64,000 nt of DNA from Terriglobia bacterium (GCA_963824985.1 CAWGRQ010000042.1:9764-73763); one strand, 5' to 3'. Shown: positions 10,401 to 24,556, counted from the first letter of the stretch. Made by a program: numbers and translations. Notes: generated by a model from the sequence alone, not told the origin.

Positions 10401-11699
10401 TCAATCCTCGAGACTTCGCTGGTTCGTTTCCTTCATGGGCAGCATGAGGGCAAGCCCGATAATCCCATACACCATGACGTAAAAGGCCGGCGCCAGCGGT
10501 TGCCCCAGGCGATCGATCAGCCATGTGGAAACAAATGGGGCCGATCCGCCTGCCAGGGCGAGCGTGATGCTATACGCAAAGCTCATCGAGGTCACCCGGG
10601 TGCGCAGAGGGAAGATCTCGACCACCATCGCGCCTTGAAGGCCCAAGGCCATGCCCAGAGGGATTGCCATGAAGATCTGGCCGTATGCGAATTGGGCGAG
10701 CGAGCCGAAGAGCATCAGCTTGACTGCAATGTACAGGAGCGACATCGTGACGACGGTCAAGATCAGCATCAGCTTGCGCCGGCCCACGTGATCGGACAGC
10801 CATCCACCAAGCGGTTTCGCCATCAGCACGAGTACGAGAACCAGCGTGTTTACCAACTGGAAGGCTTCACCTCCTTCCAGGATCACGCTCCTGCGACGTT
10901 CCACAGCAAATGTGAAGGTCAGGTAGTAGGCGGCGTTCGTCAACCCTACGATGCCGAACGTTTGAATGATTGGGATCCAATCGGCCTTCAAGGATGGAAA
11001 CAACGGCGGCCGTGCAGCCGCCGCCTTGAGACCTGCTTCCGTTTCGGAGATTCCACGCCGCAGGAAATAGCCGGCGACGCAAAACAGCACGCTGCCCACA
11101 AACGGGATCCGCCAGCCCCACGCCGCCACGTCGGCGGCCCCAAGCCAGGAATTCACGAGCCATGCGGAACCGGAGCCGAGGATGAATCCCAGCGTGGTTC
11201 CGGCAGCCGTGGAACTGCTGATCAGGCCCCGCATCCTGGGCGACGATTTCTCCGTGGTATAGACCATCGACCCGGTAAATTCTCCGCCGAGGGAGAAGCC
11301 CTGGATCAACCGCATGAGCACCAGCAGGAGGGGCGCGGCGACGCCAATCTGCGCATAGGTGGGGAGTAAGCCCAGAAGCAAGGTGGCCCCGCCCATGAGC
11401 GCGATGGATAGAGTCAGCAGGGCACGTCGTCCGATCCGGTCCCCTACCAGTCCCAGGACGAGTCCGCCGAAGGGACGCGCCAGAAATCCGATCCCGAACA
11501 CGGCGAAGGTATTCAGTTGCTGGGCAACATGATCCGATTGCGGGAAAAACTGCTGCCCGATATCACTGGCAAAATAGCCGAATACGGCAAAATCAAACCA
11601 CTCGAGCACATTCCCGATCAGGCCCGCCAGTGCGGTGCGAAGTGCGGATTGCCGTGCGATCGGTGGTTCAACCGGAGCTGTTTTGGAAATTTCGGCCAT
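10401..11699 (-). CDS. MFS transporter, metabolite:H+ symporter (MHS, ProP/KgtP-like) family
   Basis: 432 aa. LEWFDFAVFGYFA motif, GDRIGRR loop, 12 predicted hydrophobic segments. Confidence 0.8.
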   Translation of the reverse strand: MAEISKTAPVEPPIARQSALRTALAGLIGNVLEWFDFAVFGYFASDIGQQFFPQSDHVAQQLNTFAVFGIGFLARPFGGLVLGLVGDRIGRRALLTLSIALMGGATLLLGLLPTYAQIGVAAPLLLVLMRLIQGFSLGGEFTGSMVYTTEKSSPRMRGLISSSTAAGTTLGFILGSGSAWLVNSWLGAADVAAWGWRIPFVGSVLFCVAGYFLRRGISETEAGLKAAAARPPLFPSLKADWIPIIQTFGIVGLTNAAYYLTFTFAVERRRSVILEGGEAFQLVNTLVLVLVLMAKPLGGWLSDHVGRRKLMLILTVVTMSLLYIAVKLMLFGSLAQFAYGQIFMAIPLGMALGLQGAMVVEIFPLRTRVTSMSFAYSITLALAGGSAPFVSTWLIDRLGQPLAPAFYVMVYGIIGLALMLPMKETNQRSLED

Positions 11700-11798
11700 T
11701 CAGTGCACCCCCTGGAAAATAACGCGCATTGTAGCCCAGGAGGCGAGCGATCAACTACACAAAACGAGGACATACCGGAATGGGGATGCCAGCGCATC
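11569..11798. repeat. Copy 1 of a 230-bp direct repeat (first ~130 nt of the MFS CDS plus ~100 nt upstream)
   Basis: Hand alignment with 33519-33748 gives about 15 mismatches and no indels (about 93% identity). Confidence 0.9.
11728..11754 (-). promoter_or_regulatory. Candidate sigma70-type promoter of the MFS gene (-10 TACAAT, -35 TTGATC, short 15-nt spacer)
   Basis: Minus-strand reading TTGATCgctcgcctcctgggcTACAAT about 30 nt upstream of the ATG. Both hexamers are retained in the second repeat copy near 33.68 kb. The spacing is suboptimal. Confidence 0.3.
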
Positions 11799-12102
11799 AT
11801 CTCGAAAATGATAAACTCGTTCTTGACCCGTCTGAAGCTTCACACTTTAGAATTACTCCCGGATGCTTTTCATTGCCTTATCCATAAATTGGTTTACCAT
11901 CGGCATCACGGTCATGACTCGATGCTGCTAACGGGATCGTCAACCTACCCGAACCATGGATCGAATGCGGAGAGGATCCGACTATGTCATCCAATGGCAA
12001 GCCCTCATCTCACCGCTCCTCCGGCATCAGAACTCATCCGATCTCTGCTCAGGCCTTGTTTTCATGCCCGGGCTTGCGATCAGCGACTCGTCCCGTGCCG
12101 CT

Positions 12103-12194: not shown

Positions 12195-12650
12195 CGCTCG
12201 CAGACCAACCTCGTCCGGCGGCAAAATCAACCGTTGAACAGCCTCCAAAGCCCGCCAGCACTTTAAGCGGATGGCTTCCCAGAAGGATCCCCGACCTGCA
12301 AGACAACTATATCTAACATGATTTCAATGATATACGGGACCAATGATTGACAAAAACCTGCGCCGGTGCCATTTATTATGGTGTATTCGCGTCGCCAAAG
12401 TTGCTGCCCATTCCCGGGAAGCAACGCGGGGAAACCAAATTCCTCGAAGCATTCGAGGACGGGGCGCACGGGGGCGGGTAACCGTCACCGGGGTCACTTC
12501 CTGGACCCAGCCCGTCAGCTAACCTCGCCGGCATTGGGAAGGGCGGTCCTCTAGGTCCGAAAAACCCAAGATCTCCCGACAGTTAAACTTGTTCGGCCCA
12601 GGATGCCGGAAGTGCATTCCTGTGCCTGAACCTTTGGTAAGAAGGTGCAC

Positions 12651-14609
12651 ATGTTCGTCCCATGGTCTTTGGAGTTGATCGTAACGGTTGCAGTACTTGT
12701 TCTTGCGGTCGTTGTGGCGTTGGTTTCAGTGCGGAAAATCGGCCCTACGGAAGTCGGCCTCGTGGTCAAGCGGTTCTCCGCCCGAAGACTCTGCGATGAC
12801 AATCCGATTGCGTTGCTCGGTGAAGCCGGATACCAGGCGGACCTGCTCATGCCCGGCTTGCGCTGGAAGTTATGGCCTCTGTACCGCGTGGAAAAATTCC
12901 CGTGGGTCCAGGTACCTGCCGGCGAAGTCGGAGTCGTAATCGCACAAGCGGGGGATCCGCTGCCGATCGGCGCCAAATCGGCAGTCTATAAAAAGGAATT
13001 CGGAGATTTCTCGAATCTCAGGAGCTTTCTCGCCAACGGCGGGCAGAAAGGCGTGCAGCGACCAGTCCTGAGTCCCGGTACGCTCGTGCCGACTCATCCG
13101 GTGGGATTTCTGGTGATCACCAAGGAGAAGGTCTATGGCCTGCCCGTTTCCCCCGAGCTCCGTCACAAAGCCGGGGCGAAATTGACGCCGGAATTATTCG
13201 GCCTGAGGCCTGAACAACTCGAACTGGTTCGAATAGCGCCGCAACCACGCGGCTCGGGCCAGGGAGTTGTCGATATGATCGGCCTTGTGACCACGTTCGA
13301 AGGAGACCCGCTTCCTTCCGGAGCCATCGCCGGCCGTCTTGGCGAATTCTCCGACGTCGAGCAAATGGAAAAGACCGGGGTAGACGACGCCCCGATGATC
13401 GAGAGGTTGCTTGGCAACAAGAACTCGCTGCACAACAATTACCAGGACTTCCAGGCGTTCCTGGAGAGTGGCGGCAGAATCGGTCTCCAGCATGATCCGC
13501 TGCTGTACGGCGCTTTTGCTCTCAACCCTTTCCTGGTAAGCGTGGAACTCGTGCCGATGCTTGTGGTCAAGCAGGGAGAGGTCGCGGTCATCAAGGCGTA
13601 TGTAGGCCTTGTGACCCAGGACACCTCGGGCGCCGAATTCAAGTTCGGCTCGCTGGTAAGAGCCGGACACCGCGGCATCTGGCAGGAAGCGTTGCGTACG
13701 GGGAAGTACCCGATCAATCCCCGCTGCTATGAAGCGGAAATCGTACCGACGGCGATCCTCACACTCAACTGGGCGGACGCCGTCTCACAGGCGCACAACC
13801 TGGATTCCCAGTTAAAGCAGATACGAGCGAAGAGCGAGGAGGGCTTCGTTTTCGACATCGATCTCCAGGTCCAGATTCACGTACCGGATACCAAGGCACC
13901 GAAAGTGATCTCGATGGTAGGAACGATGAGGAACCTCGTCAACGAGGTTCTCCAGGCTGCCGTCGGCAATCACTTCCGTGACAAGCTGCAGAGCATGCCG
14001 GCGATCCGGTTCATTGAAACTCGAAAGGAAGTGCAGGTGCAAGCCTTCGAGCATATCAGGACGGAGCTCGAGCAATACCAGGTGGAGACGCGTGGCGTCT
14101 ATATCCAGGATGTCATCCTTCCCGTGGATCTGGTCAATGTCCTGACGGAACGCGAGATCGCCAACCAGGAGATCGAGACCTTCAAGCGGCAGCGCGAGGC
14201 GCAGGACCAGAGGATCGACATGGAACAAGCTCGCGGCACCGCAGATATGCAGTCCCAGCTGGCCAAATCGGCGGTAGGGGTGCAGATCGAAAAGAATAAT
14301 GCGAGCGCCCGCATAGCGCAGGCGGAAGGCGAATCCGTGTTCATCCGCGAGACCGGCGCGGCCCGCGGCGCGGAAGTCGAGGCGGTCGGTCTTGCGAGGG
14401 CGAAAGGGTACGAGTCGCAGGTGAGAGCCCTGGGGCCTGCCTCCACAGCGCTCGTCAATGCGCTTAACGCCTTGGCCGAAAGCAAGGTGAGGTTTGTGCC
14501 CGAAGTCCTGGTGAGCGGAGGAACCGGTTCGGGTGCGCTGGAGGCTCTGGCCGGAGTGCTCACCCGCTACTTCCACGAACCGGGAGTGGGGAATACCCAG
14601 GCCAATTAG
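12651..14609 (+). CDS. SPFH/band-7 (flotillin-like) membrane protein
   Basis: N-terminal TM helix, then GPTEVGLVVKRF (start of an SPFH fold). C-terminal Ala/Glu/Gln-rich coiled region (QREAQDQRIDMEQARGTADMQSQLAKSAVGVQIEKNNASARIAQAEGE) as in flotillins. ATG at 12651 is preceded by AGAAGG; the GTG at 12645 is also possible. Confidence 0.7.
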   Translation: MFVPWSLELIVTVAVLVLAVVVALVSVRKIGPTEVGLVVKRFSARRLCDDNPIALLGEAGYQADLLMPGLRWKLWPLYRVEKFPWVQVPAGEVGVVIAQAGDPLPIGAKSAVYKKEFGDFSNLRSFLANGGQKGVQRPVLSPGTLVPTHPVGFLVITKEKVYGLPVSPELRHKAGAKLTPELFGLRPEQLELVRIAPQPRGSGQGVVDMIGLVTTFEGDPLPSGAIAGRLGEFSDVEQMEKTGVDDAPMIERLLGNKNSLHNNYQDFQAFLESGGRIGLQHDPLLYGAFALNPFLVSVELVPMLVVKQGEVAVIKAYVGLVTQDTSGAEFKFGSLVRAGHRGIWQEALRTGKYPINPRCYEAEIVPTAILTLNWADAVSQAHNLDSQLKQIRAKSEEGFVFDIDLQVQIHVPDTKAPKVISMVGTMRNLVNEVLQAAVGNHFRDKLQSMPAIRFIETRKEVQVQAFEHIRTELEQYQVETRGVYIQDVILPVDLVNVLTEREIANQEIETFKRQREAQDQRIDMEQARGTADMQSQLAKSAVGVQIEKNNASARIAQAEGESVFIRETGAARGAEVEAVGLARAKGYESQVRALGPASTALVNALNALAESKVRFVPEVLVSGGTGSGALEALAGVLTRYFHEPGVGNTQAN

Positions 14610-14675: not shown

Positions 14676-14818
14676 CGGCTAGGCCCGGGCCAGCAGTTTT
14701 CCCAATTCGGCGGCCTTGGCCATCAATTCGCTGTAGAATTGGGACACCCATTTTGTTGTGATTATTTCCTGGCACTTTCCATGGGTTCGCCAGGGCTGGT
14801 TGCCTGGCTGTTCATGAT

Positions 14819-14863
14819 CCCAGGGCTCACGCCCTGGGCTTTGCTGCTCCGCCCCTTCGGGGC
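14819..14863 (+). repeat. 45-nt double-hairpin element, copy 1
   Basis: cccagggc-tcac-gccctggg, 12-nt spacer, gcccc-ttc-ggggc. Second copy at 24373-24417. Confidence 0.8.
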
Positions 14864-14965
14864 TCACATATTTGATCTGGCGGCATTGCCAAGCGATTAC
14901 GGCCAATCCTGATAAAGCGCCATTCGGGACAAGCACCCAAACTCGAAAAAATAGTGTGGCTGCAA

Positions 14966-15835
14966 CTATTGCGTGAGATACACAAGAAGAGGCTCTTTTT
15001 GCTCGACCGGAAAATCCAGCGTCAGAAGAAGCCCTGCGAACGACATGAGATACGCGTTTTCCCGCCCGTAGCTCGCCATGTATTCGGCAGGCACATCAAA
15101 GTTGAAAAAAACGGAATCAATCCAAGGTCGTTTCAAATATCCTTCGAACTCGGACAAAGGGGGGACATTGCGTACGAATGGAAGTCTGGGAAGAGCTTGC
15201 CGTCTCATGTTCCTCGATAGATAAATCCTGGTGGAGCCTTGGGCGTAAGAAGGACGAAACGCGTCCAACGGCTGGGGTGCTGCCAGGCTAGTGAGAATGG
15301 AGACGGAAGCGACGGGACTTACTGAAGTGTCGTAGGGGCGCATCACACAAGGCGGATTGGAGCTTGCGACACTGCGGGAAGAGACCAGCTTGTTTCCCGG
15401 AGTCAATGTGATCGGAGGGTACACGCGCAAGCTCGGGTCGTACCGGCTGGCCTGAATGCGGCTGTCGAATCCGCTGCGTTGAACATTGGGCCGGACATTC
15501 AACATGGTTCCATGTAGCCCGTTGGCCGGTGTCGGGAGAGGTTGAATATCGACGATTGTGATCGTGCCCACCACGTAATAATCGCCGTTCACAAACTGGC
15601 CTACGCGAGTGGGCGCGGCAAAGGTCCAGGTGATGCCGTCCTTGGTAATACTGCTCATCAAGGGAAGCTCTTCGAGGGTGGGAGTGGGCGGGGGATTGCC
15701 GGTCGTAAAGACCGGGACCTGGGCCAGTGCAACCGATGCGTACATGCCCCAGATGATTGGCAGCAGCGCTCCGAGCCCCGGTCTTCCCGGCCCTGATGCA
15801 AGTCGGGATTTGATGAACATGCGGCACCCGCCCAA
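14966..15835 (-). CDS. Secreted hypothetical protein (possibly 3'-truncated)
   Basis: 289-aa ORF with an N-terminal signal-like segment (LGALLPIIWGMYASVALAQ). No motif I recognise. Ends abruptly next to a repeat-containing spacer. Confidence 0.5.
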   Translation of the reverse strand: MGGCRMFIKSRLASGPGRPGLGALLPIIWGMYASVALAQVPVFTTGNPPPTPTLEELPLMSSITKDGITWTFAAPTRVGQFVNGDYYVVGTITIVDIQPLPTPANGLHGTMLNVRPNVQRSGFDSRIQASRYDPSLRVYPPITLTPGNKLVSSRSVASSNPPCVMRPYDTSVSPVASVSILTSLAAPQPLDAFRPSYAQGSTRIYLSRNMRRQALPRLPFVRNVPPLSEFEGYLKRPWIDSVFFNFDVPAEYMASYGRENAYLMSFAGLLLTLDFPVEQKEPLLVYLTQ

Positions 15836-24240: not shown

Positions 24241-24369
24241 ATGCCCGGGATCGGCCGGAAGGTTTCAAACTACCAAATTATTGAGTAGCCGGGACAGGAA
24301 GGAATGGGCGAGATCTATCGTGCCCATGGCGCGAGACTGGATCGGGAAGTTCCCGTCAAGGTTCTACCC
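24241..24369 (+). pseudogene. 5' stub of a Ser/Thr protein kinase gene with an in-frame TAG
   Basis: GGAGGG RBS, then MPGIGRKVSNYQIIE*PGQEGMGEIYRAHGARLDREVPVKVLP. Compare the Hanks kinase N-terminus YxIxxxLGxGGMGxVYxAxDxxLxRxVAxKVL. Ends at the hairpin repeat. Confidence 0.6.
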
Positions 24370-24372
24370 TAA

Positions 24373-24417
24373 CCCCGGGCTCACGCCCGGGGCTATCCTC
24401 TTCCGGCCCTTCGGGCC
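24373..24417 (+). repeat. 45-nt double-hairpin element, copy 2
   Basis: ccccgggc-tcac-gcccgggg, 12-nt spacer, ggccc-ttc-gggcc. Confidence 0.8.
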
Positions 24418-24556
24418 TGGATTGGAGTTTCGCGACAGAAACCAGCTAATTCCAATGTGGCGACGTCCGACCGTTTTTGCGATGAAACTGGAAAAAGGTT
24501 GGTGTCCTCGTATTTCCCGGGGACCTCTCATTCCCCGCTGAAGGAGACGCAAGGCC

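Follow-up and report, generated by a model that had tools for sequence, protein, structure and literature searches.

The 64-kb window of Terriglobia bacterium DNA analyzed here (the whole 64,000-nucleotide stretch, on contig C42 of the 5.8-Mb, 52-contig assembly of the source genome, G000) carries two copies of a double-hairpin motif that are further members of a known Rfam family, RF01687 or Acido-Lenti-1. Comparing these with copies elsewhere in the same genome, in related genomes, and beside transposase genes of about ten phyla, we arrive at the reading that the motif is not an RNA gene but the hairpin end, recognized as single-stranded DNA (ssDNA), of a tiny transposon that encodes a Y1 (HUH) transposase of subclass 1.2. 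We give this reading a probability of roughly 0.7; the evidence for it is comparative and, as far as sequences can tell, supports it well. We further think it probable that Acido-Lenti-1 is the missing cognate DNA repeat of the subclass 1.2 transposases, the two together forming phylum-spanning ssDNA transposons of ~0.65 kb with mirrored three-hairpin ends and ~100 gene-less copies per genome. Related genomes, contigs of the source genome, and individual loci carry the prefixes G, C, and L below, and coordinates are collected in Table 1.

The window copies are full-length members of Acido-Lenti-1

An Rfam scan of the whole window, to which the E values in Table 1 refer, returned both copies as matches to the entire 46-position model (positions 1-46), each above the gathering score of 37 bits. 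These matches are far beyond chance and, because both are full-length, the motif itself was already catalogued. An earlier note, made from the sequence alone, had described both copies as 45-nt elements with two hairpins (here H1 and H2) joined by a linker, and upon re-reading the sequence we found their letters, layout, and coordinates exactly as it gave them. Copy 1 reads CCCAGGGC-TCAC-GCCCTGGG in H1, CTTTGCTGCTCC in the linker, and GCCCC-TTC-GGGGC-T in H2 with the T that follows it, and copy 2 correspondingly reads CCCCGGGC-TCAC-GCCCGGGG, CTATCCTCTTCC, and GGCCC-TTC-GGGCC-T. Both lie on the + strand, their linkers differ at 4 of 12 positions, and their four stem differences make up two compensatory pairs (A-T to C-G in H1, C-G to G-C in H2), all in agreement with the earlier description. 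Within the window, the exact 12-mer GGGCTCACGCCC was found at the two copies only. Folded as ssDNA, both copies beat shuffled sequences on either strand (z from -3.2 to -4.5).

The units shared with relatives are longer than these 45 nt. A third hairpin, H0, precedes copy 1 and is the counterpart of the hairpin nearest the gene in the transposon end described below; the order H0-H1-H2 recurs next to the Y1 genes of C19 and C31. The extended unit around copy 1 has dozens of matches at 75-82% identity in G003, G004, and G007 (query positions 492-649), where a second, inverted motif copy lies 85 nt off, a partner that is missing in the window. Around copy 2, the unit common to relatives extends over about 24368-24447.

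Motif copies flank subclass 1.2 transposase genes in mirrored orientation

A search of the source genome with the Pfam family Y1_Tnp (PF01797) gave two strong matches, at 79 and 70 bits, and both directly adjoin motif copies. Each gene is intact, the C19 protein being taken from an internal Met at 11914 of a 206-amino acid (aa) open reading frame (ORF) at 11450-12070 on the - strand. At C19, the upstream side consists of H2'-H1'-H0' followed by 5 nt and the ATG, and the downstream side of H0-H1-H2, with the Rfam motif beginning 60 nt past the stop codon. At C31, the downstream side carries H0 and then four tandem motif copies, the first of which lies 56 nt past the stop. From these layouts it follows that the full end comprises three hairpins, of which the Rfam motif covers the outer pair. 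The C19 and C31 proteins share 53% identity, and each gene adjoins its own motif subfamily: that of C19 is confined to the C19 locus, and that of C31 is the abundant one.

Both proteins contain DHVH, WQ (within WQxGYGAF; WQGGYGAF), and Y(I/V)xxQxEHH, present as YIKGQVEHH or YVDNQEEHH, and a C-terminal tail, RTFQEEYLxFLxxxxVxYDERYLW, is conserved in 25 sequences. These residues are the signature of TnpA-Y1 subclass 1.2. With the NCBIfam profile NF033573 (IS200/IS605 TnpA, cut-off 55), the C19 protein scored 56.3 bits and the C31 protein 49.6, and with NF047646 (REP_Tyr_transpos, cut-off 80), which represents the canonical transposase associated with repetitive extragenic palindromes (REPs), or RAYT, the C31 protein scored 17.6 bits and the C19 protein gave no match. 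The closest solved structure to the C19/C31-type protein is that of IS608 TnpA, in which the HUH and catalytic Tyr residues align with those found here.

The source genome has a third Y1 gene, at C33:126593-127282 (+), which we rejected as a partner of the motif. Its RAYT-like product of 229 aa scores 57.7 bits with NF047646 (again with a cut-off of 80), no Acido-Lenti-1 copy lies nearby, and it has inverted repeats of its own (GGGGACGCAACCC / GGGTTGCGTCCCC); it is probably a TIRYT-type element, i.e., a tyrosine transposase gene with terminal inverted repeats, unrelated to the motif.

The presence of the transposase tracks the abundance of the motif among relatives. Homologues of the C31 protein were present in 21 of 31 related genomes, namely in 0 of the 6 with at most 2 motif copies versus 21 of the 25 with at least 4 (Fisher p = 3e-4), and half of the homologous loci of relatives (15 of 30) have an RF01687 match within ~500 nt. 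Searching one genome per species, we found at least 600 homologues, and the cross-phylum counts that follow refer to the best 80 loci, 216 kb in all. These loci come from about ten phyla, including Bacteroidota, Ignavibacteria, Chlorobiaceae, Acidobacteriota, Planctomycetota, Verrucomicrobiota, Sumerlaeota, Hydrogenedentota, delta-proteobacteria, Binatia, Methylomirabilota, Zixibacteria, and Fimbriimonadaceae. A covariance model of our own, built from 11 copies of the source genome and 47 Rfam seed sequences, gave 152 matches at E <= 0.006 in these loci. The motif lies at most 250 nt from the gene in 61 of the 80, on both sides in 36, and in the mirrored arrangement (-) gene (+) in 30. Upstream, the copy closest to the gene has (-) orientation in 47 of 53 loci; downstream, the closest one lies on the (+) strand in 40 of 44. 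Median gaps between gene and motif are 59 nt upstream and 56 nt downstream, and the arrangement most often seen is an inverted pair ~57 nt away from either gene end. The official Rfam model likewise scored above its gathering score on the flanks of 15 of the 20 loci tested.

Stems covary and G-U pairs are nearly absent

Among 36 distinct copies from the source genome, 96.8% of the stem cells are paired, versus 78% in shuffles and 23-58% in slid controls, and double changes occur at 9 of 13 pairs. G-T and A-C mismatches are equally rare in these copies (5 and 9 of 481 cells). Non-compensatory stem changes, which the earlier note had named as evidence against a selected structure, are not common among the further copies. 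In other phyla, 145 distinct copies flanking Y1 genes have 97.5% of their cells paired, a value somewhat inflated because the alignment was fitted to the model, with double changes at 13 of 13 pairs and G-U pairs in 7 of 1836 cells. Given this near absence of G-U pairs, DNA hairpins that fold on both strands fit the data better than RNA.

The positions T9, C21, and T38 are invariant in the copies of the source genome, and the consensus begins with CCYNGSGC and ends with GGGGCT. An intrinsic terminator was rejected because no T-run follows H2. A coding repeat, the other possibility that had been raised beforehand, was rejected on account of the occurrence of copies in both orientations, their mostly extragenic position, and Watson-Crick compensation in place of codon-position variation; the motif is not part of one.

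The motif is dispersed, extragenic, and variable in arrangement

In the 5.8-Mb genome we found 99 RF01687 matches at E <= 1e-3, of which 77 exceed the gathering score. They fall into subfamilies whose stems differ by paired changes (CCCAGGGC/GCCCTGGG, CCCCGCGC/GCGCGGGG, CCGGGGGC/GCCCCCGG, CCTGGGGC/GCCCCAGG, and CCCCGGGC/GCCCGGGG), and most subfamilies have just the 46-nt core in common. Long ORFs (at least 150 aa, with a G+C fraction at third codon positions, GC3, of at least 0.62) make up 81% of the genome and contain 22 of the 99 copies (binomial p about 1e-37). The proposal in the earlier note that the hairpins are a selected structure akin to REPs or miniature inverted-repeat transposable elements (MITEs), rather than a decaying coding fragment, is supported: the genome holds 99 copies with compensatory stems, extragenic positions, inverted doublets, and an adjoining transposase. 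Among 30 relatives, motif counts range from 0 to at least 137; as no more than 138 candidates were scored in any one genome, the high counts are lower bounds.

The copies occur as 25 inverted (+,-) doublets, with inner gaps of 20, 88, 122, 156, or 326 nt, as three gene-less (-,+) doublets, as tandem arrays, and as 35 solo copies. The inner gaps of the (+,-) doublets differ because of an internal 34-nt tandem repeat (CCCTTCGGGATTGTTGCAGTCATAAACTGCCTGA-like) in their spacers, the number of which varies to yield elements of 180, 214, 248, and 418 nt. When the orientation of the 35 solo copies was compared with local GC skew, no bias was seen (Fisher p = 0.5), but with so weak a skew and n = 35 the result says nothing about a lagging-strand preference. 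In one subfamily, CCCCGCGCTGACGCGCGGGG, with 17 copies (e.g., C1:49604 and C25:248571), the "solo" copies are embedded in a repeat, at least 250 nt long, that has extra H2-like hairpins on both sides and an apparent degenerate inverted partner ~110 nt downstream. Compared with the orthologous spacer of G001, G003, G004, and G008, the insert at C1:49604 is longer by ~310-550 nt.

Cassette homology ends at the motif, and copies come and go between species

Compared with its counterparts in two genomes of the same genus, G008 (protein 90% identical) and G004 (85%), the cassette of the source genome is homologous over ~640 nt only, and homology breaks precisely where the motif ends on its 3' side (at 2057 in L036, 2056 in L037, and 1398 in L038). 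The DNA flanking the three cassettes is unrelated and non-syntenic, and the C19-type pair L057/L058 behaves alike. Since homology is confined to ~640 nt between unrelated flanks, the cassette is a discrete unit bounded by H2 plus T that sits at different places in different species. Some genomes hold it in many copies, with 12 matches to the transposase gene in G019 and 18 in G029.

We also compared filled with empty sites for twelve further copies with joined flanks, three of which were informative, the rest being split across contigs or conserved in one flank. At C29:2515, the source genome has a hairpin-rich insert of ~390 nt with a motif copy where G005 has nothing; the insert of G003 is a different one, with a motif of another subfamily and ~48-nt tandem repeats, partly masked as N. 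The spacer in question (C29:2100-2700) lies between two conserved genes and measures about 20 nt in G005 (L162; the G003 locus is L163). Its insert in the source genome combines hairpins, microsatellite-like AATCTCGAA repeats, and the motif copy, and the spacer looks like a hot spot of repeat turnover. For the window copies themselves, no clean filled-versus-empty comparison was obtained: in the closest relative, the two flanks of copy 1 fall on separate contigs, and its neighbor gene is truncated here; for copy 2, a kinase fragment is the only flanking sequence with a nucleotide homologue in the genus.

A transposon-end model and its alternatives

In the model that we favor, the complete unit would be ~0.65 kb long and would consist of H2'-H1'-H0', a tnpA gene encoding ~150 aa, and H0-H1-H2. 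In it, H1 and H2 make up the 46-nt Rfam motif, and the motif's 3' end (H2 plus T) would mark the outer limit of the element. A dimeric Y1 enzyme would bind the hairpins in ssDNA, for instance at replication forks, cut next to the hairpin foot by means of its HUH and tyrosine residues, and then rejoin the strands; binding, cleavage, and the single-strand route are proposed here by analogy with IS608 TnpA and the TnpA-REP system of E. coli. Ends that lack a gene (solos, inverted doublets, and tandem arrays) may be mobilized and amplified in trans, in the manner of REPs and REPINs or of MITEs, and their recombination or aberrant processing could leave truncated neighbors behind. A mechanism of this kind would account for ~100 extragenic copies per genome and for compensatory stem evolution with conserved loop and linker bases. 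Any assignment of an enzyme to the copies that it would move is likewise putative.

Several observations weigh against this model. Unlike those of classical IS200/IS605 elements, the ends are inverted repeats, and the upstream end of the C31 cassette is recognizable but degenerate. No motif match lies beside the gene in 19 of the 80 loci, and four relatives with 49-82 motif copies (G006, G011, G015, and G024) have no transposase homologue at E <= 1e-10. The commonest doublets of the source genome join H2 to H2' (+,-), opposite to the arrangement at the gene; these could be integrated joined-end (circle-junction) forms or abutting elements. Lastly, the commonest class of (+,-) doublets (about 15) sits inside a larger composite with unrelated ends. 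This composite of ~388 nt, present in about 15 copies (e.g., C5:5279-5666 and C26:16860-17235), encloses a doublet in the order H0 H1 H2 ... H2' H1' H0', and its own ends (left ...CTYCTCATGCGCC..GGCGCATGAAAAT, right ...TATTTTCGGARCAG) are direct, not inverted.

Because doublets lie inside this composite, part of the spread of the motif may be passive, within another element. Taken further, the motif would be mainly a passive cargo of other miniature transposons with unrelated transposases, and the Y1 gene merely one carrier among several. Here one may point out that the composite ends are common to a second family of short elements that does not match the composite (113 TTTTCGGARCAG sites; ...GCGCAAAGAGCTATTTTCGGAGCAG), and that the whole composite (~375 nt with its doublet at C26:16968) is missing from the orthologous site of both G004 and G008. 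This empty site fits insertion after ...CAG with an element end ...GCAG, as judged from a single clean empty site and for the composite only. We nevertheless consider a predominantly passive origin very unlikely, because it leaves unexplained both the fixed distance and orientation of the motif on either side of subclass 1.2 genes in about ten phyla and the cassette homology that ends at the motif, and because most subfamilies of the source genome have no more than the 46-nt core in common. As a side observation, elements with TTTTCGGARCAG-type ends often form tandem runs in which the left end of one directly adjoins the right end of the one before it.

The motif might alternatively act in the transcript, as a small non-coding RNA (sRNA) of a multi-copy family or as a cis-acting RNA element. 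Rfam assigns it the type "Gene; sRNA," and Weinberg et al. 2010 (PMC2864571) considered it likely RNA on the basis of covariation, which is strong in the copies here as well; moreover, the copy downstream of each transposase gene is sense-oriented and would fall in the 3' untranslated region. Covariation, however, cannot tell RNA from ssDNA, whereas the rarity of G-U pairs, the missing T-run, the occurrence of copies on both strands and in inverted pairs, and the antisense copy upstream of the transposase gene all speak against a transcript. The ~100 copies per genome, their presence or absence between species, and the homology break at the motif end fit mobile DNA, and an RNA function strikes us as highly improbable. 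Slightly more room may be left for a host function that keeps the copies in place (stabilization of mRNA 3' ends, attenuation, or sites for nucleoid or topology proteins), with the transposase link reflecting origin only, although we give this little credence as the principal explanation. It would suit the strong extragenic bias, the position of copy 1 between convergent genes, the inserts in short spacers at gene ends, and the copy-rich genomes that have no detectable transposase. The C29 spacer, which among species of the same genus is empty, holds one subfamily, or holds another, argues against a locus-specific function, as its content differs between such close relatives, and both window copies lie in degraded DNA beside pseudogenes and have no terminator-like T-run. 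A host function is, in any case, compatible with the transposon-end reading.

Relation to known systems

Published remarks on Acido-Lenti-1 are confined to its occurrence in Acidobacteria and Lentisphaerae, at times near group II introns (PMC2864571), and Rfam lists the family, catalogued since 2010, as an sRNA of unknown function. The copies studied here share its two hairpins, its conserved loops (CU-N-ACG and UUC), and the GCU that is conserved behind hairpin 1; they differ in behaving as a DNA repeat at putative transposon ends, in having the third hairpin H0, and in their distribution over about ten phyla. On the protein side, Quentin et al. 2018 (PMC6006769, Table 1) characterize TnpA-Y1 subclass 1.2 by a length of 148 aa, DH[IV]H, WQ, and YIKNQKEHH (Y---Q--HH), and list it as "REP: no," lacking the terminal structures typical of IS200 and found mostly in Cyanobacteria and Bacteroidetes. 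The proteins described here resemble this subclass in length (151-154 aa), in DHVH, WQ, and Y---Q--HH, in the conserved C-terminal tail, and in low copy number. Unlike in that description, mirrored three-hairpin ends that also have dispersed copies surround their genes, and the genes extend to many more phyla; the published absence of REP- or IS-type ends does not hold in the 61 of 80 loci with a motif within 250 nt. The flanking motif thus contradicts the published description of subclass 1.2 and not the classification of the protein. We found no statement in the searchable literature that ties RF01687 to subclass 1.2.

The system resembles REP/REPIN-RAYT systems (REPtrons) in its short, extragenic, high-copy palindromes arranged as singlets, inverted doublets, and clusters, in a Y1 gene flanked by inverted copies, and in the pairing of a repeat subfamily with an enzyme paralogue. 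It differs in that neither strand of the consensus has a GTAG or GT[AG]G tag, in having two or three hairpins instead of one, and in its class 1 enzyme (Y---Q--HH), the RAYT being of class 2 (Y---NP). A further difference is that the cassette is non-syntenic between species and multi-copy in some genomes and, for this reason, is not clearly domesticated. With IS200/IS605 elements (IS608, ISDra2) and their gene-less derivatives, palindrome-associated transposable elements (PATEs), it shares a Y1 HUH transposase of ~150 aa, subterminal hairpins, and gene-less derivatives. Its ends, by contrast, are inverted copies of one three-hairpin module and not different hairpins on the same strand, no tnpB is present, and the gene exists in two divergent copies instead of many identical ones. 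The mirrored layout also fits the concept of TIRtrons, or TIRYTs, i.e., tyrosine transposase genes with terminal inverted repeats, some of them "double palindromic" and some forming dispersed families (Di Nocera et al. 2013, PMC3733652). These include an acidobacterial example, ORF1552 of Koribacter versatilis, and that paper does not name Acido-Lenti-1 (PMC3733652); Quentin et al. equate TIRYTs with subclass 2.1 of class 2 (PMC6006769).

For the window, the analysis turns two unexplained hairpins into a catalogued repeat and two adjoining ORFs into truncated ones. More broadly, it joins three literatures, namely an Rfam "sRNA," a Y1 subclass described without a DNA partner, and the REP/RAYT paradigm. 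If the transposon-end reading is true, RF01687 matches should be annotated as ends of mobile elements and not as non-coding RNA genes, and subclass 1.2 would gain a testable substrate. There would also be a second, independently organized REP-like system, widespread phylogenetically and built of a class 1 enzyme and inverted ends with several hairpins, in which to study how ssDNA transposases yield genome-wide repeats, gene truncation, and spacer turnover.

Surroundings of the window copies

Table 1. Coordinates of the motif copies and associated features. Positions without a contig prefix are those of the window.
Feature	Position	Strand	Remarks
Acido-Lenti-1 copy 1	14819-14864	+	RF01687 53.5 bits, E = 3e-9; R1 60 bits
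Hairpin H1 of copy 1	14819-14838	+	8-bp stem, loop TCAC
Linker of copy 1	14839-14850	+	12 nt
Hairpin H2 of copy 1	14851-14863	+	5-bp stem, loop TTC; conserved T after it
Third hairpin H0 (GCCAGG...CCTGGC)	14789-14808	+	DNA fold; 10 nt 5' of copy 1
Extended repeat unit around copy 1 (H0, H1, H2, ~85-nt tail)	14791-14948	+	shared with same-genus genomes
Acido-Lenti-1 copy 2	24373-24418	+	RF01687 56 bits, E = 6e-10; R1 60.6 bits
Hairpins of copy 2	H1 24373-24392, H2 24405-24417	+	different subfamily from copy 1 (CCCCGGGC...); solo
Y1 gene, intact, 154 aa	C19:11450-11914	-	PF01797; full mirrored layout
Y1 gene, intact, 151 aa	C31:189086-189541	+	PF01797; motif copies downstream
Doublets with 34-nt tandem repeat	C29:39068-39485, C24:83460-83707, C31:118541-118788, C39:107023-107236		G000
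Gene truncated at its 3' end, 289 aa	14966-15835	-	ends ...LLVYLTQ; broken end faces copy 1
Ser/Thr protein kinase pseudogene, N-terminal ~43 residues	24229-24372	+	in-frame TAG; translation SEGQMPGIGRKVSNYQIIE, stop, PGQEGMGEIYRAHGARLDREVPVKVLP, stop
Dispersed 61-nt repeat, unrelated to motif	14733-14793		abuts copy-1 unit

Both window copies lie beside truncation points, as the earlier note had observed: a 289-aa ORF is cut short at copy 1 and a kinase fragment ends at copy 2. For the former, the orthologue in G003, a genome of the same genus, has 94% DNA identity and is at least 443 aa long, i.e., at least 154 codons longer, and homology between G003 and the window over this gene breaks at 14968. 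The kinase fragment breaks off at ...VKVLP, immediately abutting the 5' edge of copy 2, and its homologue in G001 has at least 556 aa. The best reading of both copies is that they are solo ends, each left beside a rearrangement that truncated the adjoining gene.

Copy 1 sits between convergent genes, an SPFH-like gene at 12645-14609 (+) and the truncated gene. The spacer that holds it consists of a terminator-like hairpin, the 61-nt repeat, and the H0-H1-H2-tail unit, and we call it a patchwork of repeats because the unrelated 61-nt repeat abuts the copy-1 unit. Nine other copies of the 61-nt repeat, at 79-89% identity, lie on other contigs. Small ORFs called over the repeat are most likely spurious, as had been suspected of the one at 14679-14936 on the - strand, which is indeed present, encodes 85 aa, and overlaps the repeat. 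Farther upstream, a cyclic di-AMP riboswitch (ydaO/yuaA type, RF00379) at 12395-12548 (+) scored 42.6 bits against a cut-off of 38 and lies directly 5' of the SPFH/band-7-like ORF, which is 654 aa long.

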